This document shows, piece after piece, positions 777-45,394 of a stretch of DNA of 64,000 nucleotides (its first letter is position 1; each line of letters starts with the position of its first letter). This stretch comes from Sphagnum compactum (lineage: Eukaryota): contig OZ234493.1 of NCBI GenBank assembly GCA_965153455.1, positions 28,510,213 through 28,574,212 of the forward strand, given 5' to 3'. Position numbers and translations under genes: made by a program. The notes beneath the pieces were generated by a model. The model saw only the letters and a list, made by a program, of their open reading frames with translations, did not search any database and was not told where the DNA came from.

Positions 777-3700
777 ATGCAGCAGCAGCAGCAGCAAGAA
801 GATCATCACTACTCTGGCATGGACTCTTTCGTCATGTGTGGGAAATATGTCCGATACACAAATGAGCAAGTGGAGGCTCTGGAGCATGTGTACCACGAGT
901 GTCCCAAGCCAAGCTCCATACGCCGCCAGCAGCTCTTTAAGGATTGTCCCATCCTTGCACACATTGAGCCCAAACAGATCAAAGTCTGGTTCCAAAACCG
1001 CAGGTATGTATGTGTTGGGCATGTCCTCATCCCCCCCCCTCCCCCCCCCCCCCCCCCGGCCAGGCATGCATTCATTCAGACAGATTTCACAGTTTGCAGC
1101 AGATGATGATGATGTCCTGGTGCATGCATTCATTCATACACATAGATTTCACATTGCTGCCTTCAGCTACTAGAAAATATATATTATGCCTCCTCTGTTT
1201 GCAGGTGTCGGGAAAAGCAGCGACAGGAATCATCAAGGCTTCTGAGTGTGAATGCAAAATTGGCAGCTTCGAATAAGCTCCTGATGGAGGAGAATGAGCG
1301 GTTGTCAAAGCATTCTTTGCAACTCACTCTTGAAAATCACATACTATGCCAGGAGCTCCGACAAATGCCTGCTGCTAGTCTTGGTGGCATTCGTAACCAG
1401 CTTGATCAGGTGAGTGAAATTGCAGATATATATGAAAAGCTTGCATGAGTGGAGAAATGAAATGTGGTACCTGTACTAAGAAATTTAGCATTTTTATGTG
1501 CAAATCATGGGGTGCTGGTTGTTGTCTGTGTGCAGGCAGCTTTGGCCTCCACCGAAACCAGTTCTGATTCAGTGGTCTCTGGTGGTGGGCTGCATCCACA
1601 AGCCACTCCCCAACATTCTCCACGAGCCCCTAGCCCTGCTGCTGATGAGTTAGTCGTTTCTCTCACTGAGCTCCAGTAGGTTTTCTCTCCCGAAAATATG
1701 TGAATATCTTTCTGCTCTTAAACCCTGGATTTTTCTCATCATTATTCAATTTGTATATATTTTTTGTCTTCCCAAATCTGCAAGCTTCCTGTGGTGGAGC
1801 TTATTGCAGTTTGTTTTTTGGGGCAAAGTTCACTGCTTTCTACTGTAGCTCTTACTTTGCTATTGTATTTGCCCTTGTTGGGGATCTAGTATTCCATGTG
1901 CTTTGGATGTTTTGAAAGAGGCTGCCATCTTGATTCTGCACAGACCATCCTTTTATGGTCAAGTCATTAGCCATTGGGTGTCTCAGGCTAAAGACTAGAC
2001 GTGGTCTTTCATGACCAATTGTAGAGTTGGCATTCTATTTTGACAGCAGTGGGTGTGTGTTGGCAGACTGTTGTCAATTGCAGAGGAGACTGTAACAGAG
2101 TTTATTTCAAAGGCCACGGGAACTGCCATTGACTGGATTCAGTTACCGGGTATGAAGGTGTGTCATGATCCTCAATTGTCCTGCCAACAAATTACAAGTA
2201 CACCATCCCAAACTGGTGCTTGTTGGAGTTTTAGTGGTGTGCAGTCTTGTTTTTCTGGAATCAGGACAACTTGCATGTTTGTACATTGGTGTACTGAAAT
2301 GATGACGAGTAATGTTGGCATGTGCAGCCTGGTCCACATGCCATTGGCATTGTTGCTATTTCTCATGGTTGTCTGGGAGTTGCAGCGAGAGCTTGCAGCT
2401 TGGTGGGGCTAGAGCCCAGTAAGGTAATCTATGAGTTTTTTCATCTTAGTCTCCTTGAAACACATGCACCAAAGTTGTTGATCAGGAAGTGGGGATAAAA
2501 GTGTATGACTCCAAAGAAATGTTGTGAATCTTGTAGGTCCCACCCACACACTGCTTTTCAATGCTAATATCTGATCAATGCACAATATTGTCTCATTCTT
2601 GTTGAACAGGTTGCTGAGGTTTTGAAAGATAGGCCGTCGTGGCTCCCAGACTGCCATCGTTTAAGTATCTTAAGTTCTTTTACAACAGGGAATGGAGGAA
2701 CTGTGGAGCTCATATATACACAGGTCAACGAGACTCTGATCTGCTTGCTCTCATGTTTTCTTTGATCTCTCACCAAAGGCATCAAACTTTTATGAATTTG
2801 TAGATCTAATTTTGGATTTGTAGTTGTCTACAAGCTTCTTTTAATGTTGTATGCCAGTAATATGTCCCCAAGTTTCCAATCCCATTGTAACTTCTGTTGC
2901 TCATAACTCAGGCTGTGCCCTCTGCCTCTGTTTGATTCAGAACACCTGAATCCTATTGACAACTCCAAAATACTAATGTGGTTCTGGTAGACTTCACAAA
3001 TGTTTCAAGATGGCTACTAATGTTTCTTCTTGTGCATGTGTGTGCAGATGTATGCACCCACGACACTTGCTCCTCCACGGGACTTCTATACACTAAGATA
3101 CACTACTATCTTGGAAAACAGAAACATGGTGGTGGGTGATCAACACTATAGTCTCTTCTGCTGTGAGGTTCAGTCTATTTTATCTGACAGATGAGGAACT
3201 TCTGACTGGAATTGATTAGCACAGAAAGTGCCATGTCTAGTATGCAATTTCATGACAAAAGAAATTCAGTGGAGTGTCTTTCCCAGATTTGTGAGCGGTC
3301 TTTAAGTGGAGCACATGAGGGGCCAATGCTTCCTCCTGTTCAGTCTTTTGTGAGGGCAGAGATTTTACCCAGTGGTTACTTGATCCGTCCATGCGAGGGT
3401 GGAGGATGCATCATTCATATTGTTGACCACATGGACTTACAGGCATGTTTTAATCACCTATACCTTAGACCTCTGAACCCTAAATCCATAACTCACAATA
3501 CCAAACTTTTTCTCTGTGCTATTCTGTGACTTCCCTCCCCATGAACCTCTGATACACTACAAACTCTGTACTCGTACCACCTCACATCAGTTTGAACTGA
3601 GCTAGGCTAAAGACATCATCCAAAATAGAGTACATGTTACCTGTTGCTGGATATACCTAACCCAAAATGATCAGTCAGATGCTTCAGCATTTTTCTCTGA

Positions 3701-6700
3701 ATATTTGGCTCAATTGTCGCTGTCTTGTCTGCAGCCATGTAGTGTGCCAGAGGTACTGCGCCCCCTCTACAGGTCCTCAGCGATCCTTGCTCAAAAGACA
3801 ACAGTCCGGGTGAGTTTGATCCACATGAAATCCTACTGGAACATGGCAGTAAAGTTACAATTTCATATATTCTGATACTACGGTTTTTTTCTCTCTTTCT
3901 TTACCTTGGCAGGCTCTGAGACATCTGCAGGGACTAGCACAAGAAGCTAGTGGGGATAATCCCCCACAAAATGCTCAACAACCTGCTGCTCTTCGCACTC
4001 TTAGCCACCGCCTTTCTAGGTGTGTAATTTGGAAACCCAAGGAGATGAGGGAATTGAAATGGGAGGAAATCATGAACCAGGCTAGTATGACTGATTGAAA
4101 GTGAGAAGGCAAAGCAAAGGAGATGTCAAATGGTGATAGAACTTCATGTGTGCTACCTTATGTTGTAAGTCCACTGTGAATTGATCAAGTTTATCTTTTG
4201 GTGGGCTATCAGGGGATTCAATCAAGCAGTGAATGGATTTTTGGAAGATGGCTGGGCTGCAACAGTCAGTGATGATATGGATGATGTGACTGTGATGATT
4301 AATGAGTCTCCCACCACCAAATGTGGCCAGTTTGGTTCAGAACAGCTCCTCTGTACTCTTGGAGGAGGGATCTTGTGTGCCAAAGCATCCATGCTCCTGC
4401 AGGTTAGACCCGCTCTCTAAGATATTTTTTCTGTTCACTATACTCTTTTCTGGGTGTTTTCATATGCATCCTTCATGCTGTGTTATTTAACTTTAGGATG
4501 ACAATTCACTGCAGAATGTGCCTGCAGCCCTGCTGATACAATTTTTGCGGGAGCATCGGTCAGAGTGGGCTGATTGTGACATTGATGCTCATGCTGCTGC
4601 TGCTTTCCACAATACCACCCATAGTGACACTACTGGTCACTATCAATTGTCCCTCCCTTTGGCCAAATCCAGTGAGCAAGAAGAGGTCTTTGCCTTCACA
4701 TTCCTTTCCACTTTCACTGCATTGATTCATTTATTTCGAGATATGCAGTATTTTCCTTCTCTTTCTGCTTTGGAATTTCTGTACTTCATTGCAAAACCTC
4801 AACTTAGTGATAGGGCATGGGAAATCCGATTTGGGTGCATAGATTCTGGAGGTGATGAAACTTGAACAAAATGCAGGAGATGCAAATGGTATCCACTTGA
4901 GAGATAATTTTCTACTCCAAGTACGGTTTTTTTTTAATGTTGGGTTTCTGAAATCCTTTGCATTCTGTTACCCTCTGCTCTTTCAATTCTCAACATGAAG
5001 TTTAAATTCCTAATATTACATTCTTGTAGCAGGCCAACCAGTATATACTTCTATACTACATGTTGTTCATTTTCTTTCCTAGAACTGATCAAGATTGGGT
5101 TCATTGGGAACAACAGCTATGCAGTGGGATTGATAAAAATGCAGTTGGGGTGTGTTCCCAACTTGTATTTGCACCTGTTGATGTGACATTGTCTGATGAT
5201 GATCCTCTTCTACCATCTGGTTTCTGTGTGATCCCCCTTGACTGTCACATTGTTGTAAGCATATTCTCGAACCATACCTCATTTCCTCTTCTGAACTTCA
5301 ATTTTTTCACATTCCAAGGTGTGCTTTATATACTTGCTTGTACAGGTACAATGTAATCTTAACCTTGACAAGGTTCTTTCAGCTTGAATGAGGGTAGTAG
5401 TGAATTTTTGGAATAGCTAAGTCTCTGTGCTAGCCAACATGATGAAGGTGATGATCTGACATTTTGTGATTGAATCTCATAAGGTTATCACTGCACCCAT
5501 TCTTACCATGTTAGTCTTGGTTTTTCTTGGAACCAACTGACAGGAAGTTTACAGTATTTCAAACTGTTGTGGAGTTTTCTCTGCAATCTCATGGATAATG
5601 TGAAGATGTTGCAGGGTGGCTCAGGGTTATCACAGACCCATGATCTGGCTTCAACTCTTGAAGGAGGGCCAGAGGTTACTGGGCGTAGAACTCATGAGAC
5701 TGGAACAGTGTCGTCCAACCACTTGCGGTCTGTGCTAATGATAGCATTTCAGTTTGCTTATGAGGCACAAACCCGAGAAACATGTGCAGCTGTTGCCCAC
5801 CAGTATGTGTGCTCTGTGGTGGCTTCAGTTCAGGTACTTTTACACCTTCCAAGAAAACCACTGCTTCTCACCCCTGCCCACAACTATGCCAACCTATGTG
5901 ATCCATAACAGGCTGATGTAGTAGAGCTGTGGATCTGATCATTCTGAAAGGCAATGAATATATTATTAAGTAAGGGATGATGGCCGAGTCTCTGAGCTGC
6001 TCCAGTTGTTAACTGTGTTGTAATCTGATCTCCCCACTTTCCATTGGTCTTCATTCATCTTCTCCCTTTTGTCTGCTGTAATCTGTTTTTTCTTATTGAT
6101 GTGCCTCCTCTCTTGTTTTTTGCTTTTTTCCCTCAGTGTTTTCTCTATGTTTCCCCTGCTGTGGTGCAGTGTGCTAGCCAGTATCCTGGCTGAGTTTTCC
6201 CTTCCCATTGTTTCCAGACTTGCAACAGAAACTCAGCATGCATGCTAGTGGTTACATCTGACCTGTACCCACTGTAGGTGCTGATGAATTCAGTGGGTAA
6301 GTTGTGATAGATAAATCACTATGATACATGTTACTGTTGGTGGTACCTAAACAAGTGAGAGACTGTCTGTGTGCTATTCATACTGCTAGTCTTATTATTC
6401 TTTTCATTCTAGTTCTTCCCTTCTGGGTTTTTCTTCTTCCTGATTCTTCAGTTCTTTTCTGGGAGTCCTCGGATGACATAAAAAAGCAAAGATTTTTTAC
6501 CTGGTCTTGGTTTTCCTTTCACAAATGATGAGATTTCTTGATACTCATGAGAGTTATTTCCATTATGGCAGCGTGTTGCAATAGCATTGGCCCCTGCACA
6601 TCCAGCCCCCAGGCAGAGTCCTACCTCTGCCAATGCAGCTGTCCTTGCCCGACACGTCCTTCAAAGCTACAGGTATGATAGCTGACCTTGGAAGAATATA

Positions 6701-9294
6701 AGTTTCAGTGTTGTAACTGATTGGTCTTGTGAAGAGAGAAGGGCATTCTTTTAATCTGCCATCACCATGTAATGAGCTCTTTCTCTGCTCCTTCTCTTGT
6801 TGCCCCTTCAGCAAAAAAGCCAGTTGCATTGCATAGCAGCCACCTCTACCAACACAATGTGTAGAGTAAGGACCTTGAATAAGGCTGTCTCATGTGGGGT
6901 CCTCATTCCCAGAACAGCCCTGTTTGAGGTCCCTACTGGGCATAAAGAACCAGTAGAATTTTTCTTTCATCAATGGATGACTGTGAGACATTTGAGAGGA
7001 GAGGAGGCACCTTACTTAAGGTTGGAGCCTTATGCCTAAGGTGCTATCCTTCTGTTGAGGCAGAAATTTAGCTGAGGGTCAGGCACCTCCACATTGAAAA
7101 AATTCGACCATTTCCTTATGTCTAGATGCATCACTGCAGCATAGAGACATTGGGTACTTTATTTTCGCATATAGCATGACTTGATCATCTTAAATAAGAA
7201 GAATTCTATTTACAGTACTGAAGGATGTCTAGTCATGGAATTGAATAATAACTCAAAGCCAGTGTTATTACAATGGGATACTGTGTAGATCAATTGGCTG
7301 ATATTGCTTGTGACTGTACAGACTCAATTTGGGCATCGATCTAGTGGAAATAGATGCTGGAGATGATGACTCACAATTCAAAATCTTTTGGCAACACTCT
7401 GACGCCATTTTGTGTTGTGCCTGGAAGGTAGCCTCAATATCCTTAATTTTCAGAGAAGTCTTTTACAACTCTGTCTAAACCATCAACCTAAGGTAGGTAC
7501 ATGAACACTGTCCCAGAACAGAAGGTAGGTACACAGTCAAATCATACCACTGATTGTAGCACATTAAACTGCAGAATTTCGGATGTAGATGTTCTGGTGA
7601 CTGTCTGGTGGGTGGATGAACAATGCTATTTGCTTTGAACATTGCAGGGTTCATAGATTTAGAGTGACGTGTAGATACAAGGAGACTTATGAAAGGTCTG
7701 ATCTGAAGCCGCAGGGATTTCCACAGTTCTTATTTGCGAATCGAGCAGGTTTGAATATGTTGGAAACAACATCTGGGGCTTTACAAGATATGCTTTGGGA
7801 AAAGACACTGGATGAAGAAGGGCAGAAGACTATATATGCTGACTTCACCCAGGTCTTACAACAGGTAGGATTTTCCTAGCTCATTTCATAAAGAGATTTT
7901 GGAAAAATTTCCTTGAATTTTGAGTGTGCTTAATTGTGTGAAGCTGGCTAGAGCTCTCTTAGCATGCATTCACTGAGTGTGACACACTTGCACAACGTGG
8001 ATTATGCTCCCTTAACAGCTGGGTTTTGCTTTGTTTTTTAATGAAAAATATTTGAATTTTGTGTTATTGAAAATTTGCCAAATTTTTCTACAAAATTAGC
8101 AAAATTAGTCAAATTTACAATAAAAACAAACAATTGCAACCAATTTGTTTGTTGGAAAAAGGACAAAGTTTGTCAGAAAAAAGAACACTAATTAACTCCC
8201 TTCTTTTTTCAAGAATTCCAAATTTCTTTATGAAGAGTAAGGGACTGACATGTGGGGCCTCACAGCTTCTCACTTCTCACCCAAATTCACTCAGGCAGTA
8301 GCCCTTGTTCAGAGGACATAAACCTGTGAAGCTTCTTTGAGTGGGAGCCTTAGCCGACATTTCCTTCTTTTCATCACAGGCTAGACAACCTTTCCCCAGG
8401 TTCAGTTTCATTTTTAAATAATCCTTCAAATATTGGAACAAATTTATGTGAAAATATTAAGCTGAGGTGTTGCAAATGGTCATAATTATGGAAGGCTACA
8501 GTATGAATAAGTCCATTACTCGTATAACAATATTACAGTAAACCACTGTAGATCATGAAAAATACAATAATTCCAAATCTGAAAAAGGAATTGCTTTTTT
8601 GAAAGAAAATAATTATGTGTTTTGTCAACATGAACTCTAACCCTAGGCTACAGCATTGATCAGCAGTGACCCTGAAACCAAGTAGGTGATATATATGAGT
8701 ATGACAGACATGAACTGTGGACGACCTTAGGACACAGATCAGTGTACTGAAACCAACGCACATGCATATCTAATACCTAAAATTTTGTTCCTAATGTTTC
8801 ATGCTGCCTGAATTATCAGATGTCCTAGTGATTGCAGTATGAAACGGCTGATGAAAGCAATGAAATGACCATTGTGGGCGGGCATTCTCTTTTGCAAAAT
8901 GCCTCCACAAAGGGCGGCTTTGTAATTTGTAATTACCTATCGTACTGGCATGTCTCAATCATTACACTGGGTAATGCTCTGGCAGCAGCATATTACACCC
9001 TGGACAGACACCCTGGACCTCAGGCTCTGCCCTCTCTTCACAGTGTGTAATGCCCTTCTGTGTTAGGGGATTGCCTTAACACAATAGAGATCTGTCTCCC
9101 AAACTAACCACTTTATATACCCAAGAAAATGTGTGCTATTTCTACAGGGGTATGCATATCTACCTGCTGGTGTGCGTATTTCAAGTACGGGGCGGCGGGT
9201 GAATTATGACAAGGCACTCGCATGGAAAGTTGTGGCCAAGGATGACAGTATTCAGTGCATTGCTTTTCTGTTCATGAATTGGTCATTCAGTTGA
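777..9294 (+). CDS. Class III HD-ZIP transcription factor (homeodomain, leucine zipper, START, SAD, MEKHLA), 19 exons, about 855 aa, intact frame
   Basis: Exons 777-1003, 1205-1409, 1536-1648, 2067-2157, 2328-2423, 2610-2723, 3048-3131, 3287-3442, 3735-3809, 3913-4019, 4213-4402, 4515-4685, 4843-4920, 5117-5254, 5615-5833, 6572-6672, 7322-7427, 7715-7864, 9148-9294 sum to 2568 nt with no internal stop. Motifs GKYVRYT..QVEALE, IKVWFQNRRCREKQ, KATGTAIDWIQLPGMKPGP, MYAPTTLAP.RDF, LPSGYLIRPCEGGG, LCAKASMLLQNVP, FLREHRSEWAD, FANRAGLNMLETT, AWKV...CIAFLFMNWSF. Start could also be the in-frame ATG at 819. Confidence 0.95.
2147..2337 (+). promoter_or_regulatory. miR165/166 target site split by intron 4 (variant sequence)
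   Basis: Spliced sequence CGGGTATGAAG|CCTGGTCCAC (2147-2157 + 2328-2337) versus the complement of miR166, GGGGAATGAAGCCTGGTCCGA; 14-nt core identical. Confidence 0.85.
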
Positions 9295-11751: not shown

Positions 11752-13066
11752 TTACATGCACTCCCAGATTTGAAAACGCATGCAAGTATTGTCATTGTGG
11801 ATTCGGTATGGTGTTCCTTGACACAGTAGCAAGGCCTAATGTGTACAGACAAAACATTATAAACACAATGTATTACAACACGATGATGAAGCTACAAGGT
11901 AGCTGGACTTACTAAGCTATGCCCATGGATCCAGAGAGAGAGAAATATGGGAAAGAAATTCAAAACCAGTAATATACATGGGAGTGACCCAAATGACAAT
12001 CTAGAGCTAGCAAATGGAACAAGACGTTGACACTAGGATTTAGCTAGATGACTTGAATGATGACAAACAAAAGAATTAGCAACTTGGTATGTGTGTCTGT
12101 GTGTACATGTGTGAAAGTTTGAAGGTGGGCGTGGTCTAGTTCCGCAACCAACCTTGAGATAGTTGCTGTGGTTAAACGTGAAGCGGTGGTACATGCCTGG
12201 TGGTAACACAAATAAATCACCTTTCATGATCTCAATGCTGATCCACTGTCCATCAAAGTCTCGCTCATCTTCCTATCCTGATCACCACAACAACAACAAC
12301 AACAACAATCGACCACCATAAATATTGCAAAATTTAATAATAGAATTTCAACGTCAATTTAGATCTAGATTCTATATTTACCACTTGCAGCAGCAGCAGC
12401 CGACCATGCATCATAGGGTCGTCCAGCGGCTGACTCCTACAGCTCTAGGCAGTGAGTTCCTATTAGTCGCCAGAACTAAGCAGGATTCTTAAAATCTTCT
12501 ACTTTACTGTCTGACCTCTAGCCAAAATTTGCTCCTTCCTCTTGTGGATGACCGCCAGTCCAACTACTTGAAAAAATTGCAAAATGAAAAAACCCCTGGT
12601 TTTGTCCAATGATAATTCTGGAAGCCTGCAGTAGTGCTAGCAGCTCGTTTTAATGGGGTGGGAAAATTTTGTTATATGTACCTATCCCATCAAGGATGAA
12701 GCGAATCTCTTCGTGCTCTGTGAAGAACGTCAAAGTTATTCTCGGCCTGCCAGGAGCCACTGTTAGCACCTCCTGCGATTTCCAGCCATGCAGCCATCAT
12801 CTGGCATTAGATAGATGCATGATAATCTACAACCAGTCTCCATATATTCACCATCCACACGTGAGGCAGGGTAAGTTACTTTCATTTTTTCCTAATGAAT
12901 TGCAAAAAAATTATATGCTGCAACTTATTGAAAGAATTAAATGTTCAACTGGAATTTTTCTGTTGGGAGTGTATCGATGAGGAAGGTCTAGAGGATCTTC
13001 AATGCATGGGTTATAGTACCATGCTCGAACGTGTTCTGAAGCCTGATCTATCAATCTAGTCCCCAT
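11752..13066 (-). pseudogene. ARD: Acireductone dioxygenase (methionine salvage / Yang cycle) pseudogene
   Basis: Minus-strand pieces: MGTRLIDQASEHVRAWYYNPCIEDPLDLPHRYTPNRKIPVEHL (from 13066); ...TFFTEHEEIRFILDGIG (12772-12682; EHxHxxEEIR motif shortened by deletion); G*EDERDFDGQWISIEIMKGDLFVLPPGMYHRFTFNHSNYLK (12277-12153, in-frame TAG); weak last exon ALLLCQGTP (11835-11752). Confidence 0.85.
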
Positions 13067-13157: not shown

Positions 13158-14091
13158 TGATGCGCTCTCAAGCTCCTTGAGAAACTCAAATGTGAGTCTG
13201 GTTTGAAAATAGCGGAAGGGTAAGGAGTTGGGGACACACTCCCTAGCTCGCAGCACTTTGAGAGGGTAGAAGGGCGTGCTGGAGCTCCGGGATGAAATTA
13301 GGAAGAATTACAAGCAATCAATCACTCACGTAAATCTACACAAAACCAAACAACAAGTTGGTTAGTGCATAGCGAAAGCACTTTTGGTGCTAGGACAGGC
13401 CACGGGCAACTTGGACTCACAAGACTCACTATAGCCCAGACTCGAGGGAAGCCACCACCTTCCCCCATATAGTATACTTTGTGCCTGGCCATGGGGCTTG
13501 CGCCCAAATGGCTTTTTGTCCGAGGACTCCCAAGTGGGAGTCTTGAAATTCTCACCGCTAGGACTCCCGTGACTTTGAGGGCCCATAACTTTGCATGCCC
13601 ATAACTTTGCGTGCAGACCTCTGATTGAGATAAGGTTTGAGGCAAAGTTGTAACCCTCGTCGAGAGCTTTCGAACGATATGTTGCACGCCACCTACACGC
13701 AAGGGAATCGGGTCAATTCCCGACTTTTAGTGATCGAGAGTTAAAATTGCCAATTTGACTCCCGGCCCTTCTTTTGACTATAACTTATGTTATAAGCATC
13801 TAAATGGGTCATGCAAGCCCATTTTAAACATCTACATTTCAAGATTTTTCCAATGATATGAAGACCTCCTCAATCCATTGAGTTTTGGCCCTTGCAATCG
13901 CTCTCTAAAAATTCGGGAATCCACCAAGACTCCAACTCCCAAAATGGGAGTTCCCTTGGGAATGTGAAGGGACATTCCCTCACACTCTCCTACACTCCCG
14001 GGAGCACGACATGTGACTCACGGGCCTCCTCTTGGCCCGCACCCTTGCAAGTTCTCACCTTGGTCGCGAGCCCAAGGCTAGGGTTGCGACA
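13158..14091 (-). mobile_element. Solo LTR (Gypsy-like termini), 934 bp
   Basis: TG...CA ends (minus strand TGTCGCAACCCTAGCCTTGGG...GAGCGCATCA), near-perfect 5-bp flanking duplication gtaaa/ataaa, GC-richer than flanks; a truncated second copy lies at 55724-55848. Confidence 0.7.
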
Positions 14092-16854
14092 ATAAAAGTC
14101 TTTTCCCAAGGATTACGCATGACACTTGTCATTTTTGTGTTGGTTTATAATCTAAAATTGTTGTGTTTTGGATACACAATTTCACATTGCATGTTAGATA
14201 TAAATACATTTTTTATTACAATTTTATTTTATGTCATGTATACTATACATTCATGCCCTTTATCAAATAAATATTAACAATTTTTATCAATTTAAATCAT
14301 TTTACCCTTCTAATCATCAATGGTAAAATCCTTTCCAATTTTCAAAGAAATGGTGCACATTTGGTAGAAAAAATGGACATTTGAAAAAAATAGGGACTAT
14401 CTATTTTTGAAGTTTGAGTGCTTTGAACATGTAAAAACATTTTTTATTTTTGTTAAGCTTTGAGCATGTAAACTTTGTAATTTATGGAAGATATTCCAAA
14501 AAAAAATGACAATCCAAACTATTATATTTCTCTTGTTATTTTTTCAAACATACAAAAATGCAATTTTGAATGTTCACTTACTTGGGTGGCTCCTTTGATT
14601 GTGTTTTCACCCTGAGATTATTTGAAGTTACATCAATGTGAACACTCGGCCATTGATAAAGATGAACCCTTTTGTAAATATTCTATTGTACATACCGTGT
14701 AGTTTGGGACTTTACATACATCTAGTGCACACCAACTGTTTTCACAACAAAGTTTGTGGTCGTTAAAGAGAATCTTTCGAAGGAAGAAAAAAATAATTCC
14801 AAAAGCTAAGGGATCAAATGAATCAAATGTCCATGTTGTCAATGGAGATTTTTTCATATAGTTCAATCCAAAAGCTAGCTAATTATGGCATAGAGTGCGA
14901 ACAACTTGCTTTCAGCCAATTACAGATATGTGTAGAGATCAAATGGGTGTATATGTTCATACATTACTATGTGATCACTTTGATTCCCTGAAGATTAACC
15001 CATAAAGATACCATATGCATGAGTGCCAATTATTCTGAAAATTAAATAGTCAACATCAATCACAAGATGCACTCTTACAAGTTAATGTTTTATGCACCCA
15101 TGCATGATGTAAAACACCATGATTAGTACTACTTCATGACGTCTACAAGAACAACAATTTTATAACAACCAAAGTTAAGAGTTTTTCCAACTACTTATAA
15201 GGTCATAATTGATTTTTTGTGTTTTTATTAGTTTTTATCAATTGTAGCTGTGTAACAAAAATAAAAACATGAACATCGAAAGATGGATTTGCTTGTTTAT
15301 ATCAAGTAGTTCATAAACTATTAGTGAGACACCACTTTCACAATGGGTAATACTAACTAAATGGTACGTATTTTAGTAACAAAAAGTTTAAGATCCCACT
15401 TCAAGAAAAAATAACCCCCTCCTTTAGGGGATGGAAAATTACAATTTAGAACATGACCTTTGAATACAATACGAAATTTTCTTGAATATAAGATGTAGTT
15501 TGAAATAATTCGAATTGGAACTAATGGTTACTAGTTAACCTTCAATTAGCCTTTAATTCTTTTTTTTTTTTTCAAAAACTTGACCATGGGTTCTAGTTTT
15601 GATTTCACACATGAATAAAACCCACAACCTAGTTTTGGGTTTCAAGTTCTTGAAACCATTTAGTTCTAGTTCTAAAACCAGTTCCAATTCCATTTTTAAC
15701 AATTGGAACTAGAACCTATGCAGTTCTAATCTACAAAATAGGGTATGTAGCTACCCATCATTAATTCCCAAATGCATATTAATGTTGTGGGGGGAACCCT
15801 ATGGATTTTAACATATCAACCAAAAAAAATAGGATTTAAAGCATTTCCAATCTAGGTAAACATAAAAGTATGTATAGGCTTTACCAAATTATCTCTAGTT
15901 AAGGGTGAACTTAACTTATCATTAGTTAATGATGAACTATTTTGTTGAACATAATATAAAGGTTGAGGTGTAAGTATTAATCATTTAAACTACGTTTACT
16001 TTGGATATAAATTGGTGAAAACAAGTAAATCAAAATATGTATAGTATAAGCTCAAATATGCAACGTTAATAAACATATGGAGAAAAATAAAAGTTTGCAC
16101 CTTGGAATTTATAAATGAAATTGAAAACATACTTCACAAGGATGGGGGATGGGGATTTTAAGTAAATGGAAAACACTTTCATCAACTTTCAACATCATTG
16201 TATGGCAATTGAAAATGATCTCCATTGAACTAGATGACAATTTAATATTTGATTTCCATTGTTGGATGGTGATTGAAAGTGATCACCATTCTTGAGTTGA
16301 AATCTTTTTTGGTTGCTAGTCATTGCATGGTGAAAATCATTTTCAAATGAGAGAAGATGAGGTGAAGGCGAAAGTTGAATATAAACGCAAAGATGATGAA
16401 GAAAGAGAATTGAAAAGAAAGGGGATGATGAAAGAAATAACAAAATTGATGATGACAACTAAGAAATCAAACATTCAATGTCTAAGGGAAGGCTCGAAAA
16501 ATGAAAGAAATAAACCAAGAAAACAGTAGATTAAAAAAAAAATTATGTTTTAAACAAACAAAAAGGAAATTACATTAGCGCAGGGCGTTAAGAAATTTGG
16601 CCATCAATGAAAGACCATTATTGAATTGAAATGCATATTTGAAAAAAATTATATGATACATTAAGCGCAAAGCCAAAATGAAAAAACCTTTCTAAACGAA
16701 TCAACCAAAATGAATTTAAAACCATTGTGGAGCCTTGTGTGTCATCTTCCAATCTTGGATTTGCACAATAAAACATAGACACTAATAGGATTTTGGAATA
16801 AAATAACTATGTTAATAACTAAATTTATAATTTTATTGAATCAAATGACTATGG

Positions 16855-18256
16855 CTAGTAAAGTTTTGCCGAACAATTTGTTTAAGTAAATCAACAACAC
16901 ATGGTGTTAAGTTGTGTTCAAAACAACTATGTACAATGTTCACATTGATTTATAATTTGTTTTAAAAATGTAATCATTTTATAATTATTTAAGGCACATG
17001 TAATAATGTTATAATCATTTACGATACTATGTAGTTATATTGTAATGTAGAATCAAGTTCAAAATTTCATTAGAGGGAATTGAACCCTCATCTTCATAGC
17101 CATGCATCAACTCATTAATCATTCAACCAATACTTCAACTTATGATATATTATGTCATCGCATAAATATAAACATGTATATTTCAAATCTTATGCATTAT
17201 CATGTCATTATTTAATTATGTAAGTTCATAATAAATTAATTTCACATTTTAATTACATATTTTAAATTATTTAGATGAATATTTTTAATTCAGTATAAAA
17301 ATTTGATGTTTTAAAATTCTGATTTCAGTTATAAATTAAATATAATTTGTAATTTGTAGTTCATTTTAATATTTAATATTTACTATTTTATTTGGTTCAT
17401 ATATTGGGATTTTTTTAATAATTAATTTAAACTGATTTAATATTTCTGAGCCATAAATTAAAAAGTGAAATCAAGATTTTGAATTAAATTTGATGCATAT
17501 TTTTAATTCCATAATTTTATAAAAATTATAATTTTCAAATTTTTAGATGTAAATATATTATATCGATTTAGAATATTTATTTCAAAAACTTCAATGCAAA
17601 AATTTTAGCTATAAACATACACATAAATATACATGATTTAATTTTTGAAATAAATTTAATTATCATTTATTAAACCTTTATACATGTATGCATGTCATAT
17701 GTAGAAATAACAAACTTAAATATAACATTTTTATAAATCCCTAGAAAATGAATTCACTTGAACTTCATATACACATGTGTTTTCATGTAATAATGCATAC
17801 GAGTGTAGGTAACCCATGGCTACGCCACTCCAGCCACCCCCAAGAAAAGGAGGGAGCACCCAAAAAAAACGAAAAAAAAAAAAGAAAAAAAAACACCTCC
17901 CTTCACTCCCCTGCCCAACAAAGGCCATGGTTTTGTTACCCAGGGACATGAGACCGTGGCCCGGTCCTTCCCCGCCCGTGCCCCCCCCCCCGTGCTAACC
18001 CCCCCACCCCACATGGACCAGTGATTATGATGGGGGGCCACCCGTGCTGGCCCCCCCTACTGGCCCCCCCCACCCCTGCTGGCCCCCCCGCCCCACATGG
18101 ACCAGTGATTATGATGGGCCAATCAGAAACACTGAGCAGCAGCAGCAGTTAGAGGGTTTGGACGAATAACTACCACCTTCACCACCATCATCCAAAAAAT
18201 TCATTCATCAAAGACAGACAGACGCATAGACACCATGTTTGTAATTATATATAAGA
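16855..18256 (-). mobile_element. Non-autonomous Helitron, about 1.4 kb
   Basis: Minus-strand 5' end A|TCTTATATATAATT...GCGTCTGTCTGTC; 3' end ttaaacaaattgttcgg-caaaacttta-CTAG (decayed hairpin 10 nt before CTAG); internal GC-rich block with duplicated ccccacatggaccagtgattatgatggg. Confidence 0.6.
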
Positions 18257-21200
18257 TATGATTATTGTCATTATAAAACAACTTATGAAAAACTTTATGA
18301 ATGTACTTGTTAAATTATATTTTATGATGTATGATGTAATTAGTATTCACATTTTTGATATAACTCACAATATACAATTAAGTTATGACTACAATTATGT
18401 TAATTTGATTACATATTTACACCATATGATACAATTACACATGTTAAATTTAAATTGATGCACATTAATTTTTTTCACATCATATCTTAAATAATATTAC
18501 ACCTTTTTTAATAGGTGGTTACATAAGATAACAAATCATTTTAATATTATAATAATATTATTATTATTGGTTTATCACTTTAATAATTTTACATCTTTAG
18601 CTTAAAAGTATATAAAATTGAATTTATGTTCACATTATATTAAACATTCATTTCATTGATTCATTAATTATAATAATTACTAAATTGTAATTACACATAT
18701 TGTCACATAAGTTAAATAGTTGCAAATATAATTCATAGTTTTTTTTTTTAGTTGTTAAGGATCACCAATTTATAAAGTCATTGCATAAAACATGAATTCT
18801 TTTAATGAAAAATGTGTTATAATATTTTTGTTGTTATGCACATAGGTTGAAATTGTAATTCTCACCTACACATTAACGTGTAAATGTTGAGATGTGTTTG
18901 TGTCTTTAGTTTTTCCGATCAATGCCATAAAGTCCTAAAGATTACATGAATGGTGTGCAATAATTAATGAATTTGCACCAGTTCTAACCGAATCCCAATT
19001 TGTTATTCATTCTTTTGAATGTGGTACATGCATGTGATGATAGATAGTTTAAACATAGTCCAATATGTCAATATGGAACATGTTCCAAAACATGGAAGAT
19101 GCAATACATTTCAACATCAAAATGTTAAGCTATAGATCTTGCATAAAAACGCAACAACACGATTTACACAATTCACCATGTTATTAGTTTCATTCATATA
19201 GTCACTATTGTGAAGAAAGTATTTCATTTGTTGTCTTTTCACTTAGAATAAAGATTAGATAAAAGTACTCATGATTACTTGTTGAAGAGAGTTATTCATT
19301 TCGCTCTAATTTTCAAATGTGACCATTTATCTAAATATAAAACTTTGGTGGCTAAAACATTTCATTTTTGAAAAATTCAAAATGGTTGTTTCTTGGAATC
19401 TAATGGCAACTTACCCTAATAGTCCACAATGAACTCTCATTTCTTTCAGTTAAGTCATATTTGTATACATGCATTGTGAACTGAGATGCTAGCATACATT
19501 TTGCTATTGATGGTCATTAAGATGGATGTGATTATCAATAATGTTCAATATGCTCATCAATTTATTCTATGTTTTGTATTAAACATATTACTTTTTGGAC
19601 TAATTAATCTAAACACAATTAATCATTCCATACTACTAACCTTGATTTTATAATAATTTGTATCACTATGTTAAAACAACAAAACAAAACTATTATATTT
19701 TTGTAATAGTGGTACATTCTTGACATGGAAATTAATATAAAATTGGTACGAGATTAATATCACCCTAAGTCCTCAAATCATCATATAGGTCTTTGCTACC
19801 AATATTGATACCTTCATTGATACTAAATGTTAACACTTAAAATATATTAGACCAACACCCCTCTTAGCAACTATCATGCATGACATCATTAATGCAACAA
19901 ACCTATTACTATTGCACAAATTAACCATGTTAGTAAAACAATTGCAATTTTTGTTAATATTTTAACCAATCAAATTATAATCTTTGTTATTGGTCATTAG
20001 TAATAATGATTTCGCATATAGAAACTAAGTTATGATTTATGATATCCTCTTCCACTTCTTCCATATAGGACTATTTTAATTGCTATAAAGTTTGGTAGGT
20101 TTTCATCATCACATTGCACTAATACATGATGTTTGACAATCCAATAATTTTTGTACATTATATACAAAAGTATTGGATTGTCACACATGAATGACAAAAT
20201 GTTTTTATATGTAACTGTCAAATTATATCTTTATCCATATATCTAGTCTACTAATATAAATCCATTTAGAGAATGTGACTATAGAATTATATGCACAATT
20301 ATCTAAATTTTGTAATATTGAGATTTTATGCCTTGTCAAGTAAAAGTAAAAACAGGATACGTACTTGAATTTAATTTCATTAACTAGTTTAGAACACAAG
20401 TACACAAACAACCTCAAAAGAGTCTTATTTATGAATCATGTGCATTCTCTAAATTGTTAGATCTTTCCATGTTTTAACATTTGGTTATAAAAATAGGTTG
20501 TATGTTATGAATCAATGTCATTGAGCTGATTTCTAAAACATGTTTAATATACTATCGTATGGCCATATACCCTTTAATGTATCACATGTTATACAATTGG
20601 ATTTGAATTTATTATCAATAATCAACACCAAAAGATCTGAATGTATTGAAAATCATTTTTTCATAATGAAATCCAAATGTCCTCATGTCTTATATGTTAA
20701 TTACACATCATCATTAGTTAATGACATGCCAAAACATGTCTTCTGTTTTAAGAATCCTCTTCAACATAACTTCCTCAAACTCTTTTGTCTCAATTCATGT
20801 GCTAAAACCAACAACCAAACTAATTTCATAATCATGAAGTATCACTGATGACAACCCTTTCCAAGGAAGTAGGGTACATACCATTTGCATCCAGGGAGGC
20901 ATGTTATAACAGGTTGTGTGAGCTGAAGTGAAAGCATCTTGGGAATTGCGTCATTACCTGTTCAAGCATTTGTCAATCAACTGATCACTATAACAAATCC
21001 ACAATCAGTTTTAAAAACAAGAAGAAAACTATTCACCAAAGGTAGGATGCAACAAAAAATGTCAATATTTTCAGCCACCTTGGCAGCCTGCCCTAAAAAG
21101 CTCAATGAGGCTTAAAAAACAGGTTTTAACTCTGAATGGACTCATGGCTACTACAAAGGCAACTACAGAACAACATTTTCATGAGGAGATTCTTCGATGA

Positions 21201-29854: not shown

Positions 29855-31036
29855 CTATGCAGCACTTTTCTCCCACTTCAAGGGTTTCACAACTTCCCAG
29901 GTGAAGTCAGGGTCATCTCGGCCGAAATGGCCATAGGCAGCAGTCTTCTGGAACCTCTTGTTGCCACCACGCTTGAGATCCAGATTGATGGACATCATAC
30001 CAGGCCTGAAGTCAAAATTCTCCTTGATGATCTTCAGAATTTCGGCATCAGGGATCTTCCCAGTGCCATATGTATCAACGAAAACAGACAGGGGCTCTGG
30101 CACACCAATGGCATATGAGACTTGTACAATGCAGCGGCGTGCAAGCCCAGCAGCCACAATGCTCTTGGCGGCTTGCCTGACAATGTAGGCACCACTACGA
30201 TCAACCTTGGTAGGGTCCTTACCAGAGAAAGCACCACCACCATGGGCACCCCATCCTCCGTATGTGTCAATGATAATCTTCCTCCCTGTCAAGCCAGCAT
30301 CTCCATGAGGGCCACCGATCACGAACCTCCCTGATGGGTTCAAGTGAAAGATGGTATTCTCATCGAGATACTTCTCGGGGATCACTGGCTTGATGACATG
30401 CTCTCGCAGATCAGCAGCAATCTCATCATTGGTAACTGTCTCATCATGCTGAGTGGATATCAAGACGGTGTGTACTCTCAGTGGCACCATGGCACCACCA
30501 TCATTCTTGTATTCTATAGTCACTTGGGTTTTTCCATCAGGTCTCAACCAGCCACAAGTCCCATTCTTCCTCACCTCTGTCAGCTTAGCTCCGAGTTTCG
30601 TGGCCAAGACGTGAGTCAATGGCATCAACTCCTCAGTTTCGTCTGTGGCATAGCCGAACATGTGACCCTGGTCACCAGCACCAATGTCCTCAGGTCTCTT
30701 GGTGAGATGGCCATGGACGCCCTGTGCAATGTCGGGGCTCTGAGCCTCGATGTTCATCAGCACCTTGCATTTGTCAGCATCCAGACCCACAGCGTCTGAG
30801 GTGAATCCGATCTCCCGGCAAGTATCCCTCACGATTTTCTCGTAGTCGACTTCGGCCTTGGTGGTGATCTCTCCGAATACCATCACCATGTTGGTCTTGG
30901 TGCAAGTCTCACACGCCACCTTGCTGTCCGGGTCCTGCTCAAGACACGCATCTAGCACTGCGTCTGAGACTTGATCGCAAAGCTTGTCTGGGTGTCCCTC
31001 GTTCACAGATTCGGACGTGAACAGAAAAGTCTCCAT
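29855..31036 (-). CDS. MAT: S-adenosylmethionine synthetase (methionine adenosyltransferase), 393 aa, intronless CDS with a 5'UTR intron (31355-31039)
   Basis: [60 protein letters not shown]; an AG acceptor 2 nt before ATG 31036 and a CAG|GTATAT donor at 31355. Confidence 0.98.
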
Positions 31037-31960
31037 CCCTACATCCCGAATCACAAAACCCACAGCAGAAAAAAAGCTCAGTACAAAACTAGACCAAAAA
31101 AAACCCCATTCACTTTGAGTGGAGACAAATCCGAGCTAAATAAAACTCCAAAACCTCAACCTCCATATTACTCAAACATGTACAGCGACAAGGTTACAGC
31201 CACAACAGAACGTTCTGTTGACGGAGAAACAGAAGAACCAGAAGCAGGTAGGAAGTGAAACAGTGAACCCAATCTAAAAGAAAAAGAAGTTAGAGAAGAA
31301 GAAGAAGAACCAGAAGAAGAAACACGGAAGAAGGAATATACTATACACCATATACCTGGCGAGAACTTCGTAAGCTTCTCCTTGGAAATGCGACAAGAAA
31401 GAGAGACCAGCCAAGGAAGTCGGACTGCGAAGGAAGAGAGGAGACTCTGCCGGGGAAAGCTCGCGACGCTCTGTTCTTGTACACGAGCAGAAGAGAGGAG
31501 CTTTTCTCGCACAGTAGCGGCAACGTCCAGAGGTGCGAGACGAAATCTGAACCGTCCCCTCAATTCGACGGTGAGGATTAGATCAGGCTTGTCTATATGA
31601 TGACCGTAGTCCTGCGCCCTCACCCCACCCTCACGAGTCACAACTGTAACAATGTAACCGGCAATAGCCGGTGACTCAGCTGCAACTTCCCCGAAGTAAG
31701 ACGTTATTACAACCAATCATATATTTTGTTGCGAAATTATAAAAGTAAAAATGGCATATTTTGCCGTTTAGTGCTTGCTTTTTTGGGAAAACAATATTGC
31801 CAAATTTTCGGAAATTATTGAAAACTTTTCGCCACATTTTCATTCAGATTATACAGAGGGGAGGGCAATTTTTTTTTACCAGTGTGTAAATAGGGTATGT
31901 TGGTGGAATTACCATAAATGATTGCTTCTGGTTTTACTACCCCAAGCCTTTTTGGTGTAA

Positions 31961-33369: not shown

Positions 33370-34840
33370 TTAAGCCTTTTAAATGCAATTCTCCTCCAAT
33401 TTTATCCAGTTATACTTTGAAGGTTTTATGAGATGACTACTAGCTTTGTTTTTTTTTCTCTGCAGATTTTGTAGGTTTTTTTTATTAAAAAATTTAGGAA
33501 ATTCTTGGATGTTTTTCTAGTGTAAATTCTCTTAATTTAACCCAAAATTTTTGGAAAAAGTGACCCAAATATGATGCTGCAAAATTGGAAAAAGAAAAAG
33601 CCGTATTTGCCTATGTGTCCATGTTAAACCATGGATACATAATGTGTTCCAACCTGAGGTTAAACATGTGTTTCATATCATACTTCTTTATTGATCTTTT
33701 GTAACTGCGGGTTACTTATTCAAGCTTCTATTAATTAGTGAATGGATGCACCCACAATGGAGAAAATACTCTCTCTCTCTCCCCATCCCCCCCCCCCCCT
33801 CTCACCTTCCAAAACCCAAAAGAAAAAACTATGAACCCCTCGCCTCAGTAGCTGAAAGAATTTTCTATTTTCAAAATTGATAGTCACCATTTTCAACCTC
33901 AACTAATAACCTCATTATAACTTGAGGGTACTTATTTATTCAAATTGTTCATAGTAGTCACCATTTAAGAAAGATTCACAACAAGGCCATGTTAGATTTA
34001 AAATATCCCACCCAACTCCAAAAGTGATCATCAATTCAATTGCTCTAAGAATTTGCACCATTTAATCATGTGCTTGAAATGGCCACGACAATTGCAACAT
34101 GGAAATCTTTAATGGCCATCGAGCACTAAAATATGAATACAAGCATTTTATGACTCAAAGTGCCAATGAACGTGTCACACATTTGAACTATGTATGTGGT
34201 TGAGAGCTTTCACAAGCCAAACACAATGTAGCATGGAAAACGTCAATGTATCACTTTTTGTTTTTGGAAACCTTGACTCAAAGATTTTCTTATCTTGTGA
34301 CATCTCATTTTTGAACCCTACTCATACACTCACCAAAACACAATAGACATTGCCAAGTAGAAGAATCTTGGAAAAGATAAAGTTGAACTACAAGGCTAAT
34401 GAAAAGACAAAAAAAAAAAAAGTGGTGATGGATAAACTATGTTCAAGATAGGGTAGTGAATGGCACCTAAAGTAATTGCAAGAGGGTTGTTAAGGGTTGT
34501 TGAAAACTTAGAAAGCTAGCTAGGCTAATAGAAAGGTGGAAGGCCAATAACTAATGGCATGATGTTTTAAGGACTTCCATTCAATTCATTTGTCTCGTAC
34601 AAGCTTACCATTAGCCAAATTGGTTTTTCACATGTGCGATGACTTTTAGGAAGGTTTCTTGGCTTTGTCATTAGAATCTTGGATTGGTATCACCTTTTGT
34701 GTGGGATATTCGTCGCTTATCTATTGTAATTAGTTGATAATTTGGTGTGCTATATTTTTTATTACTAAAAACCAATGGCTTACATCAAAGGCTTTTAATT
34801 TTAAAATAATATCATCAAATCTATGTGGGGAAAAAAACTA

Positions 34841-35140
34841 CCTTTTGAAAATGTCCAAAATGGGTTGTACATATGTTGTCACAATGTGCACCATGTTTTC
34901 TTCTAGATTGTGAAGCCCGAAAAATTTTGGTTCCCAACCTCCCATTATCTTTTGAAAATGTCTAAAATGGGTTGCACATATGTTGTCAAAATTTGTGCCA
35001 TTTTTTCTTGTAGATTGTGAATCTTGAAAATTTTTGGTTCTCAACCATCCCATCACCTTTTCAAAATATCCAAATTTGGTTGCACATATGTTGTCAAAAT
35101 GTGTGCCATGTTTTCTTGTAGATTATTAAGCCCAAAAAAT
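34841..35140 (+). repeat. Tandem repeat, about 107-bp unit, about 2.8 copies
   Basis: cttttgaaaatgtc.aaaatgggttg.acatatgttgtca.aat.tg..ccat.ttttcttgtagatt recurs at ~34841, ~34949, ~35056. Confidence 0.8.
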
Positions 35141-35349
35141 GGAAAAAGATTGGAGACATGGATTATAATGATAATGGAATAATACCATGGCATTAAGATG
35201 GTATAATGGTTTTCAACAATACCATTATACCTTGGTAAGTTCAACATTAATTAAGAAACACTATTTATAAAAATGTTGAAATTTCAAAGAAAAAAAACTT
35301 GTTTTGTGAAAAGAATAGAATGTCTCGTATGGAATAAATGGAAATATTT

Positions 35350-36495
35350 TATTATCAACATGAAGGAATACAATTCATTAAGTAAGTAGTTGTATATATT
35401 ACCTCTATCAACAAAAGGAAGGGTAGTTGAACTTTTGCAGCCATATTCCTTCTATGTTTAAGATCATGTAGTTCTTTCATTCAGCCATTATGTTTTGGTG
35501 AGGCATGTTCGTTATTGTAAATTTTTTTTGAATGCTTTCATTTTGACAAAAAATATTGAAAGCCAAAGATAGAAACTCCCCACCATGATCGATATGAAGT
35601 ACGTTGGTCACCAAGTTTGTTTCATTCTTTATTTGATTTTTCGGTATCTTGAACTTATCAAATGTGGATGTTTTATTTAATAGAAAAAAATCCATGTTTT
35701 TCAAGAGCAATCATGTATAGAAGTTAAGAAATATTTGGACCCTCCTAAAGATGAATGCTTGAACATTCGACAAAGATCTACATGCATCAATTTTGTTCTT
35801 ATGTTTGTTCAAGGCTTTTGTAGCAACAAGTTTTTGCAGCTTGATCATTATCACCAATTGCATATTCTTCATCTTCATCAACCACCTCTACTATTATTGT
35901 GTTACTTGCAACATTAATTTCATTGTTAGTAGCTTTGACCACATCCCAAACTTCTTCTTTCAACAATATTATCTTTATCTTGCCTTCCAAACCATGTAAT
36001 TTGATGGTCCTTGTAATTTGTTAAAACAATCCATTGAAATCATGTTATGCTCTTGAGCCATAAATTTGTTATCATGATAATAACTTGTGAATCACAAATA
36101 TGAAATAAAAATAATAATAACATGATTAAATTGAAAAATTAATAATTATATATGTATTTGAACTATTCACTCAAGGACTTAGATTGCACAATTCAGATTT
36201 GAAAAAAAACATTTTTAACATGTGTTATGATACCATGAAGGAAAGATGTAGAATCTCGTTTATCTACAAGAAAACATGTTGATTACAATGAGCTTGGTTC
36301 TCAATATATAAATTAAATTTTTAAAAAAACCAGCGTAAATAATATATGTTCACTACAAGTTTCATTTTTAATTTTATCGTAACTTACTACTAGAAATCCA
36401 CCATCACCACCATTATTCAAACTTCTCTACTCTTTTAGAATGTTTTGTATTTCGTGTCAGGTTTGATAGATGTGTACATGTGACTAATATTAACA
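35350..36495 (-). mobile_element. Degenerate Ty1/Copia 5' half: 5'LTR (36495-36236), PBS TGGTATCA, gag remnant, integrase core remnant
   Basis: LTR begins TGTTAATATTAGTCACATG and ends CA immediately before TGGTATCA (tRNA-iMet PBS); gag-like LQGPSNYMVWK..KIILLKEEVWDVV; integrase HIDHGGEFLS...PHQNIMAE. Confidence 0.8.
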
Positions 36496-36529
36496 TGCAA
36501 ACTAGTGATTAATATTAACATATATATAT

Positions 36530-39500: not shown

Positions 39501-39846
39501 ATGTTTCCAAATATGAAGATGTTCAAATTGTTACAATAGTCAAATGATGCATAGATTATCAAAAGAATATCAAATTTGAAAAGTGTAAAGGAAGGTGTTA
39601 ATATTAGTCACATGCACATGTCTATCAAACTTGACACGAAGTAAAGAATATTTTTAAAGATTATAATGGTGGTGACGATGGACTTCTAGCAGTAAGTTAT
39701 GATAAGATTGAAAATGAAACTTGTAGTGAACAAATATTATTTATAGTGATCCACAATTTAGATGTTCTAGATCTAATGTATATATTGAGAGCATTGTAAT
39801 GAACGTGTTTTCCTACAAATAAACAAGATTATACATATTTCTTTCG
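36530..39846 (+). mobile_element. Degenerate Ty1/Copia 3' half: integrase end, RT, RNase H, PPT, 3'LTR (39596-39846)
   Basis: MFGYLDYIHVPK...KKLG, FVGYDDASKAY, EHDSIIKNHTW...NKWVFKTK, ILYVDDV, ENPILH.RT.HI, FTKPL; purine tract aaaggaagg before TGTTAATATTAGTCACATG, which is homologous to the minus-strand LTR at 36495-36236; many stops and frameshifts. Confidence 0.85.
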
Positions 39847-40049
39847 TATGGAATCTTCAAAATTAAATTAATTATTTGATAGACATGTGTTGAATCTACC
39901 CCTCTACTCCAATATGTATTGTTTGGCACCCCAAATCAGCAATGTTGAATCATTTGATGTTAAAGCATAAGCAAAGTCAAATTTATTGGGTTTTTGGTAA
40001 CATGTCAACCTAGTTATATCATTGATCCTTGTAGTGAGGACATGGCCTT

Positions 40050-45334: not shown

Positions 45335-45394
45335 TTCTTCCTCAATCTTCTTCCAAACACACAACACTCTCTCTTCCTCACAAGCAATCAACAC

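Follow-up and report, generated by a model that had tools for sequence, protein, structure and literature searches.

The microRNA (miRNA) miR166 and its targets, the homeodomain-leucine zipper genes of class III (HD-ZIP III), are among the oldest and most strictly conserved miRNA-target pairs of land plants, and single base changes in the miR166 site cause dramatic dominant phenotypes in flowering plants. We analyzed a stretch of 64,000 nucleotides from the moss Sphagnum compactum (GenBank assembly GCA_965153455.1, contig OZ234493.1, positions 28,510,213 to 28,574,212 of the forward strand), which we call the window and number from its first letter. The window contains a class III HD-ZIP gene whose spliced miR166 site ends in two changed bases, so that the protein motif usually written KPGPD reads KPGPH. 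The product of such genes is a transcription factor involved in leaf patterning. We refer to the Sphagnum paralogue lineage to which this gene belongs as the H lineage, and to the positions of the miRNA guide as g1 to g21.

The closest described system is the canonical miR165/166-HD-ZIP III module, represented here by MpC3HDZ1 and Mpo-miR166a of Marchantia. Slicing at positions 10/11 is documented in Marchantia by 56 degradome reads, and a table in the same paper reports miR166 in the moss Physcomitrella and in liverworts (PMC4788410). The H gene belongs to the same gene family as MpC3HDZ1 and has the same order of domains. Its site likewise lies where the START domain begins, is interrupted by an intron, shares the spelling PGMKPGP and retains intact pairing across the slicing position. 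It differs from the canonical module in its last two bases, which leave g2 unpaired and change Asp to His. We hold with moderate confidence that the H gene is a redundant duplicate in which erosion of the site has attenuated, and not removed, control by miR166.

Results

The spliced miR166 site

The site is assembled from the end of exon 4 and the start of exon 5 (Table 1). In the window, the last base of exon 4 is 2157 (...ATGAAG), with GTGTGT next to it, and the first base of exon 5 is 2328. When 2147-2157 and 2328-2337 are put together, the resulting 21-mer is exactly the one written out in an initial annotation of this DNA. The exon 4/5 junction is in phase 0, with the codons reading P G M K / P G P H, and it coincides with the slicing position, with the target base opposite g11 on one side and that opposite g10 on the other. 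The Pro codon CCA occupies 2334-2336 and the His codon CAT occupies 2337-2339. The first departing base, A at 2336, fills the silent third position of the Pro codon; the second, C at 2337, opens the His codon and accounts for the Asp-to-His replacement at residue 216.

We found that an environmental fragment, P0387 (91 aa, from a 1344-nt contig), runs from the end of intron 3 through exons 4 and 5 to the beginning of intron 5. It confirms the splice by which the site arises, since it reads from exon 4 to exon 5 with intron 4 removed. All 63 of its 63 aligned residues are identical to the window protein, and it carries KPGPH. When the unspliced window was searched on either strand, no miR166-like 21-mer was found at three or fewer mismatches; the site therefore exists only in spliced RNA. 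No Rfam family reached threshold anywhere in the window, and no MIR166 was found there.

The initial annotation had named an assembly error at 2336-2337 as an observation that would undo the case for an altered site. At 2337 such an error was rejected on the strength of His in proteins from six other species; at the silent base 2336 it could still account for the change.

Pairing with miR166

Pairing was computed against the miR166 sequence given in the initial annotation, which had reported mismatches at miRNA positions 1, 2, 17 and 21 and continued pairing at positions 3-16. Splicing and pairing the site again returned the same picture. The non-pairs are g1 (U/C), g2 (C/A), g17 (U/U) and g21 (C/C), and Watson-Crick pairs are formed at 17 of the 21 positions, that is at all of g3-g16 and at g18-g20. 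A near-complementary 21-nt site thus stands at the conserved PGMKPGP place in the spliced mRNA.

The duplex energy of the site is -34.6 kcal/mol, which is 78% of the value for a perfect match, compared with -37.0 kcal/mol (84%) for the same site ending in GG, a loss of 2.4 kcal/mol. The mismatch penalty is 5, as against 2.5 for the GG-ending site, and falls to 4 if g1 is not counted. Allen et al. (2005) are said to have accepted penalties up to about 4 when the weights at g2-g13 are doubled. Schwab et al. (2005) reportedly tolerated a single mismatch within g2-g12, provided that it did not fall at g10 or g11. The H site agrees with the latter rule, its sole mismatch within g2-g12 being the one at g2.

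Work on Argonaute bears on how the two new mismatches should be counted. Guide base 1 is held in the MID pocket of Argonaute and the target base opposite it is unpaired; with Arabidopsis AGO1, an A opposite g1 raises affinity only about two-fold over a U (PMC11194062). Dinucleotide mismatches in the seed lower binding by Arabidopsis AGO1 more than 10-fold, and about 1000-fold at positions 4-5, and central and tail mismatches are without effect on binding (PMC11194062). Since g1 is unpaired in Argonaute, the base change that replaces Asp with His should matter little for targeting, and one new seed-edge mismatch counts, g2 being the first seed position. The initial annotation had listed both bases as mismatches; the one at g2 stands, and the one at g1 drops out. 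In Marchantia, a C3HDZ1 site with three engineered mismatches is still partly cleaved in a reporter under miR166 overexpression (PMC4788410). Our data suggest that miR166 control of the H copy is probably weakened, not abolished.

A Sphagnum paralogue lineage with KPGPH

The window gene is assigned to the class III HD-ZIP family, as the initial annotation had proposed, by its homeodomain, its START and C-terminal MEKHLA domains and its placement in the tree. The Pfam domains were scored on the S. balticum orthologue P0004, standing in for the spliced window protein, and we found the Homeodomain (E = 2e-15), START (E = 9.5e-43, residues 187-393) and MEKHLA (E = 1.4e-39, residues 714-855). The region beside the homeodomain, where the leucine zipper would be expected, aligns with that of the relatives. 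A search with exon 1 (777-1001) returned class III HD-ZIP proteins with Pfam PF00046, and the five best matches were Sphagnum or peat-bog sequences. The window protein and P0004 align end to end with 97.2% identity (831/855). Identity to the orthologues of five named species is 95.7-97.4%, the window protein being identical to none of them, and identity to the sister paralogue, which is the nearest canonical copy, is 83%.

At 90% identity the orthologues form a cluster of 27 members, and the motif counts for the H lineage come from the 15 of these 27 that were listed. Among those listed, all 11 of the 11 members that span the site carry KPGPH. Ten of them are gene models or isoforms, and these come from S. 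balticum, S. tenellum, S. fallax, S. troendelagicum, S. magellanicum and S. jensenii, six named species in all; the eleventh is the environmental fragment P0387. Every site-spanning member of the three other Sphagnum clusters carries KPGPD. Public Sphagnum genomes already carry an annotation of the H gene, under the label hypothetical protein, and named orthologues are BDL97_08G073700 (S. fallax) and CY35_08G069700 (S. magellanicum). Full-length H models of 839-863 aa exist in five named species, and the S. jensenii model is truncated at 499 aa, where it runs into intron 7.

A tree was built from 32 rows and 829 columns by a quick IQ-TREE search, with support from the Shimodaira-Hasegawa-like approximate likelihood ratio test (SH-aLRT) only. 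The six H rows form a clade that is sister to the clade of a canonical KPGPD copy, c2, and SH-aLRT is 100 both for the H clade and for the pair. H and c2 lie in a Sphagnum group nested among moss C3HDZ proteins. The stem of the H clade measures 0.15 changes per column, compared with 0.038 for c2. These results uphold the suggestion of the initial annotation that the gene is a paralogue with a natural change, and add that the lineage is Sphagnum-specific and that the change is old, being shared by six named species and one transcript fragment.

We also counted the last residue of the motif in a set of 426 proteins, which consists of best matches and cluster members with isoforms included and is not a random sample. 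The motif is borne by 225 of these proteins, and its last residue is D in 210, H in 11, E in 3 and G in 1; all 11 proteins with His belong to the H lineage. Another 11 long proteins are without the motif, and the alignment shows divergent extra copies in Diphasiastrum, Actinidia, Abeliophyllum/Forsythia and Henckelia. PGPD had been described as constant across land plants, which is too strong, the motif of several divergent paralogues in other plants being far more eroded than that of the H copy. Sphagnum is therefore not alone in having a lineage-specific paralogue that departs from PGMKPGPD. Among the literature matches listed, judged mostly by titles and abstract openings, none was about class III HD-ZIP genes of Sphagnum or about Sphagnum miR166. 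On these comparisons the H gene belongs with a well-known miRNA target, of which it is a fast-evolving, lineage-specific paralogue whose site is mildly eroded.

Rate and constraint

In a relative-rate test with a third Sphagnum copy (c3) as outgroup, 67 changes were unique to the window copy and 24 to c2 (binomial p = 7e-6). Three further species triplets gave 68-73 versus 22-24 changes, with all p values below 1e-5. The rate of change in the H lineage is about three times that of its sister copy c2. The same contrast is seen between species: when identical species pairs are compared, 23-38 of about 820 columns differ between H copies and 7-11 between c2 or c3 copies.

The H lineage has fixed replacements at ten residues that are invariant in the 26 other rows of the tree alignment: R37H, N62H, K83Q, T159S, R260H, W364C, R393Q, G444D, R677H and R681C. 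The reverse pattern, a change fixed in c2 at an otherwise invariant column, was found at 0 columns of the same 32-row alignment. Of the columns that vary within the H clade, 18 of 60 are at sites invariant outside Sphagnum, compared with 2 of 44 in the three other clades pooled (Fisher p = 0.0009). With S. tenellum left out, the H share is 10/43 (0.23), lower than the 0.40 expected under neutrality (p = 0.028) but higher than in the paralogues (p = 0.014). This indicates that constraint on the H copy is clearly relaxed, though apparently not gone.

Private changes number 17 in the S. tenellum orthologue, P0230, and 8 of these fall in columns that do not vary outside Sphagnum; the other five H copies have 4-9 private changes each. 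Either the S. tenellum copy decays faster or its gene model is partly wrong.

CpG content and the kind of change

Replacement of Arg by Gln, His or Cys is the outcome of C-to-T or G-to-A transitions at CpG in CGN codons. We found that such replacements make up 12 of the 67 H-lineage changes and 0 of the 24 in c2. The observed/expected ratio of CpG in the H gene is 0.32 in the coding sequence (CDS) and 0.13 in introns, and TpG and CpA are in excess, near 1.5. Over the gene body (2001-8000) the ratio is 0.15-0.22. The depletion together with the 12 Arg replacements suggests long-standing CG methylation over the H gene.

Across the window the CpG ratio ranges from 0.12 to 0.95 per 2 kb, lying at 0.12-0.3 over much of it and at 0.65-0.95 at 60-64 kb; in a neighboring S-adenosylmethionine (SAM) synthetase open reading frame (ORF) it is 0.51. 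Because the depletion is window-wide, it cannot be called specific to the gene. A heterochromatic or transposon setting was considered as the cause of CpG decay and found no support: a Pfam scan of 135 ORFs of at least 70 aa past 9.4 kb returned ordinary genes and no transposon domains.

We take the ancestral codons of the site to have been CCG GAT, an assumption that follows the initial annotation. If so, the change opposite g2, from CCG to CCA, is a silent CpG transition, and the change opposite g1 is a G-to-C transversion. CpG transition is the commonest kind of mutation in this sequence.

Gene structure and transcripts

Splicing of the window gene was guided by homology to P0004, with one junction corrected by hand. 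The model has 19 exons and a CDS of 2568 nt that encodes 855 aa with no internal stop, and usable splice sites are present at 18 of 18 introns (Table 1). Intron 8 has a GC donor. When GT donors alone were allowed, the model gained 17 residues at this intron that are absent from all orthologues, and with the GC donor the protein matches P0004. An alternative 5' splice site at exon 3 lengthens the protein in frame, and annotated isoform pairs in S. fallax (852/861 aa) and S. magellanicum (854/863 aa) differ by exactly this 9-residue insert. Several environmental fragments end at a TAG just past the alternative donor, compatible both with intron 3 retention and with use of this donor.

Of the 12 environmental fragments examined, 8 have at least one intron removed and 4 are unspliced. 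The former are therefore RNA-derived, and the gene is transcribed and spliced. This weakens the proposal, made in the initial annotation as a possible refutation, that the gene is not expressed. Intron retention was rejected as a mark of the H copy, as non-homologous tails occur in 6 of 8 H fragments and also in 6 of 11 c2, 1 of 2 c3 and 5 of 12 c4 fragments. Because the other paralogues show the same, no inference was drawn from the intron-retaining ends of fragments.

Intron 1 contains at 1029-1057 a C run of about 27 nt, interrupted by one T. At this run the environmental genomic fragments P0002 and P0003 translate to much shorter proline runs, and the length of the tract seems to vary among Sphagnum lineages.

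Table 1. Coordinates of the H gene, its miR166 site and other features of the window.
Feature	Position	Strand	Description
Class III HD-ZIP gene, Sphagnum H paralogue lineage	777..9294	+	ATG to stop; homology-guided splicing against P0004
Exons 1-10	777-1003, 1205-1409, 1536-1648, 2067-2157, 2328-2423, 2610-2723, 3048-3131, 3287-3442, 3735-3809, 3913-4019	+	
Exons 11-19	4213-4402, 4515-4685, 4843-4920, 5117-5254, 5615-5833, 6572-6672, 7322-7427, 7715-7864, 9148-9294	+	
Exon 3 alternative 5' splice site	1649..1675	+	Use of the donor after 1675, in place of that after 1648, gives 9 extra in-frame residues
miR166 site, 5' half	2147..2157	+	End of exon 4; opposite guide positions 21-11
Intron 4	2158..2327	+	GT...AG, 170 nt, 3' end ...TGTGCAG; splits the site between the bases opposite g11 and g10
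miR166 site, 3' half	2328..2337	+	Start of exon 5; opposite guide positions 10-1
Departing bases of the site	2336..2337	+	A at 2336 opposite g2; C at 2337 opposite g1
Intron 8	3443..3734	+	Non-canonical GC donor (GCATGT), AG acceptor
Acireductone dioxygenase exon	12036-12272	-	ARD family, Pfam E = 1.2e-10
SAM synthetase ORF	29858-31135	-	Intronless, 426 aa, all three Pfam domains
Aldo/keto reductase exons	within 41724-45466 and 59463-61995	-	Two ORFs, E ~1e-6
Two long ORFs	within 41724-45466 and 59463-61995	-	314 aa with an F-box-associated LRR match; 470 aa without Pfam match
AT-rich intergenic stretches	14001-20000, 34001-40000, 52001-58000		G+C 0.27-0.33

Neighboring genes

The acireductone dioxygenase exon and the SAM synthetase ORF lie 18 kb apart on the same strand, and both encode enzymes of the methionine cycle. 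In the AT-rich intergenic stretches, ORFs of at least 70 aa gave no Pfam match at E <= 1e-5.

Discussion

We favor, with the moderate confidence stated above, an origin of the altered site by erosion of a redundant duplicate. A Sphagnum-specific duplication of a class III HD-ZIP gene would have been followed by relaxed purifying selection on the H copy, which would have gained many replacements, a good share of them CpG transitions. The miR166 site would have eroded along with the rest of the copy. A silent CCG-to-CCA CpG transition may have removed the pair at g2, and the adjacent G-to-C change may have replaced Asp with His opposite the non-pairing g1. The site would then be left with one extra mismatch at the edge of the seed and with unbroken g3-g16 pairing across the slicing position. 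We infer that Sphagnum makes canonical miR166, which would still recognize and slice the H mRNA, less efficiently than the mRNAs of the KPGPD paralogues. Such a quantitative weakening could be tolerated in a redundant copy and would not amount to escape. Because the whole protein evolves under relaxed constraint, erosion is a simpler cause than adaptive escape.

Several observations weigh against this explanation. The silent change at 2336, on which the loss of the g2 pair depends, was seen in this window alone, the relatives having been compared as proteins. A penalty of 5 exceeds the cut-off of about 4 used in classical plant target prediction, and a stricter view would take the site as lost. 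When S. tenellum is included, the H share of changes in conserved columns is 0.30, which does not differ significantly from the neutral 0.40 (p = 0.115), and the H copy may be closer to decay than to function. Finally, as summarized in PMC11194062, Mallory et al. 2004 saw miR165/166-guided cleavage of PHB fall most with single mismatches located in the seed.

The last of these points also bears on the rather unlikely reading that the changes have no effect at all, with slicing and repression the same as for the canonical paralogues and the variation of the site a matter of neutral drift. Such an outcome would fit the location of both changes at the 3' extremity of the target, where the base opposite g1 is unpaired in any case (PMC11194062), as well as the unbroken g3-g16 pairing and the small energy loss of 2.4 kcal/mol. 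A single mismatch within g2-g12 and none at g10-g11 is what the rule attributed to Schwab et al. 2005 would tolerate. However, g2 is in the seed, and seed mismatches are the worst class both for AGO1 binding and for PHB cleavage (PMC11194062). At the other extreme the H gene could be a fixed miR166-resistant copy with a wider expression domain and a new role, a wild counterpart of the dominant phb-d and rev-d. Fixation of the variant across six named species, a penalty above the classical cut-off, and the ten H-specific replacements at positions invariant in the 26 other tree rows, which could reflect a new function, are consistent with full escape. We nevertheless consider it improbable. Pairing persists at 17 of the 20 pairable positions (g2-g21), all of g3-g16 included, and the replacements resemble relaxed constraint plus CpG decay and not directed change. 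The dominant angiosperm alleles reportedly hit more central positions. The Marchantia site with three engineered mismatches was partly cleaved (PMC4788410). A related idea is that a copy with a weakened site has been kept since before the Sphagnum subgenera split, that its wider or stronger expression feeds a Sphagnum-specific trait, and that the protein changes mark a new function and not decay. We give this idea little credence; if it were true, the trait might be, for example, the two-cell-type leaf or the capitulum.

Two further readings concern the fate of the gene and the guide. If the copy were on its way to becoming a pseudogene, the site change would have no regulatory meaning because the product no longer matters. 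The near-neutral share of changes in conserved columns (18/60), the 17 private changes of the S. tenellum copy with 8 in conserved columns, and the truncated S. jensenii model all point that way, although the truncation may be a matter of annotation. Set against these, the 855-codon frame is intact in the window, full-length models exist in five named species, the three Pfam domains were found on P0004, spliced transcripts exist, and without S. tenellum the conserved-column share falls below the neutral value. We therefore regard gene decay as distinctly unlikely. Lastly, a Sphagnum isoform of miR166 might have co-evolved to match the site at position 2 or at positions 1-2. Given a guide with U at position 2, the penalty would drop from 5 to 3, which is arithmetic only, and such a guide would mismatch the three KPGPD paralogue groups if these carry the usual site. 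The window contains no miR166-like sequence and no Rfam family, and among the literature matches listed no paper on Sphagnum miRNAs was recognized by title or abstract opening. The chance of a co-evolved guide appears very slight.

Erosion with attenuated control thus remains the explanation that we prefer. A variant fixed across the genus in one of four paralogue groups is a natural test, in vivo, of pairing at the edge of the seed, and also of a duplicated target drifting out of miRNA control. Should its effect prove nil or small, as expected, this would be ordinary relaxation of constraint after duplication.

Comparison with known systems

The dominant gain-of-function alleles of PHB, PHV, REV, ICU4 and maize Rld1, together with engineered silent-site versions, were reportedly described by Emery et al. 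(2003) and Mallory et al. (2004). The H variant resembles them in that base changes fall within the same 21-nt site, and in that one of its changes is silent, as in the engineered versions. In contrast, those alleles are new mutations or constructs with strong phenotypes and, reportedly, with changes at more central positions, whereas the H variant lies at the edge of the site and is fixed across the genus. Because the H gene is one of four paralogue groups, any effect of its site would be buffered.

Closer parallels are found among other copies with altered motifs, compared at the protein level. Diphasiastrum P0285 reads KPCPD and, like H, is a lineage-specific extra copy with a changed motif. 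Actinidia P0293 is a REVOLUTA-like extra copy that reads K-LGSD, and in the REVOLUTA-like copies of Abeliophyllum/Forsythia (P0292) and Henckelia (P0296) the motif is largely eroded. Orobanche gracilis P0036 has KPGPG, and Lupinus P0088, Cunninghamia/Cryptomeria P0284 and Phaeoceros P0031 have KPGPE. Compared with these, the Sphagnum H copy is the mildest case, with one residue and two bases changed. It is also the only one with His, and among D, E, G and H only the His codon changes its first base, the one opposite g1.

Charophyte class III HD-ZIP genes, which Floyd et al. (2006) reportedly described as predating a conserved miR166 site, share with the H gene a site that departs from the land-plant consensus. 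A charophyte origin of the window gene was ruled out by its Sphagnum matches and by the tree. Unlike the charophyte genes, the H gene is nested inside moss sequences, and its altered site is therefore derived by loss, not ancestral.

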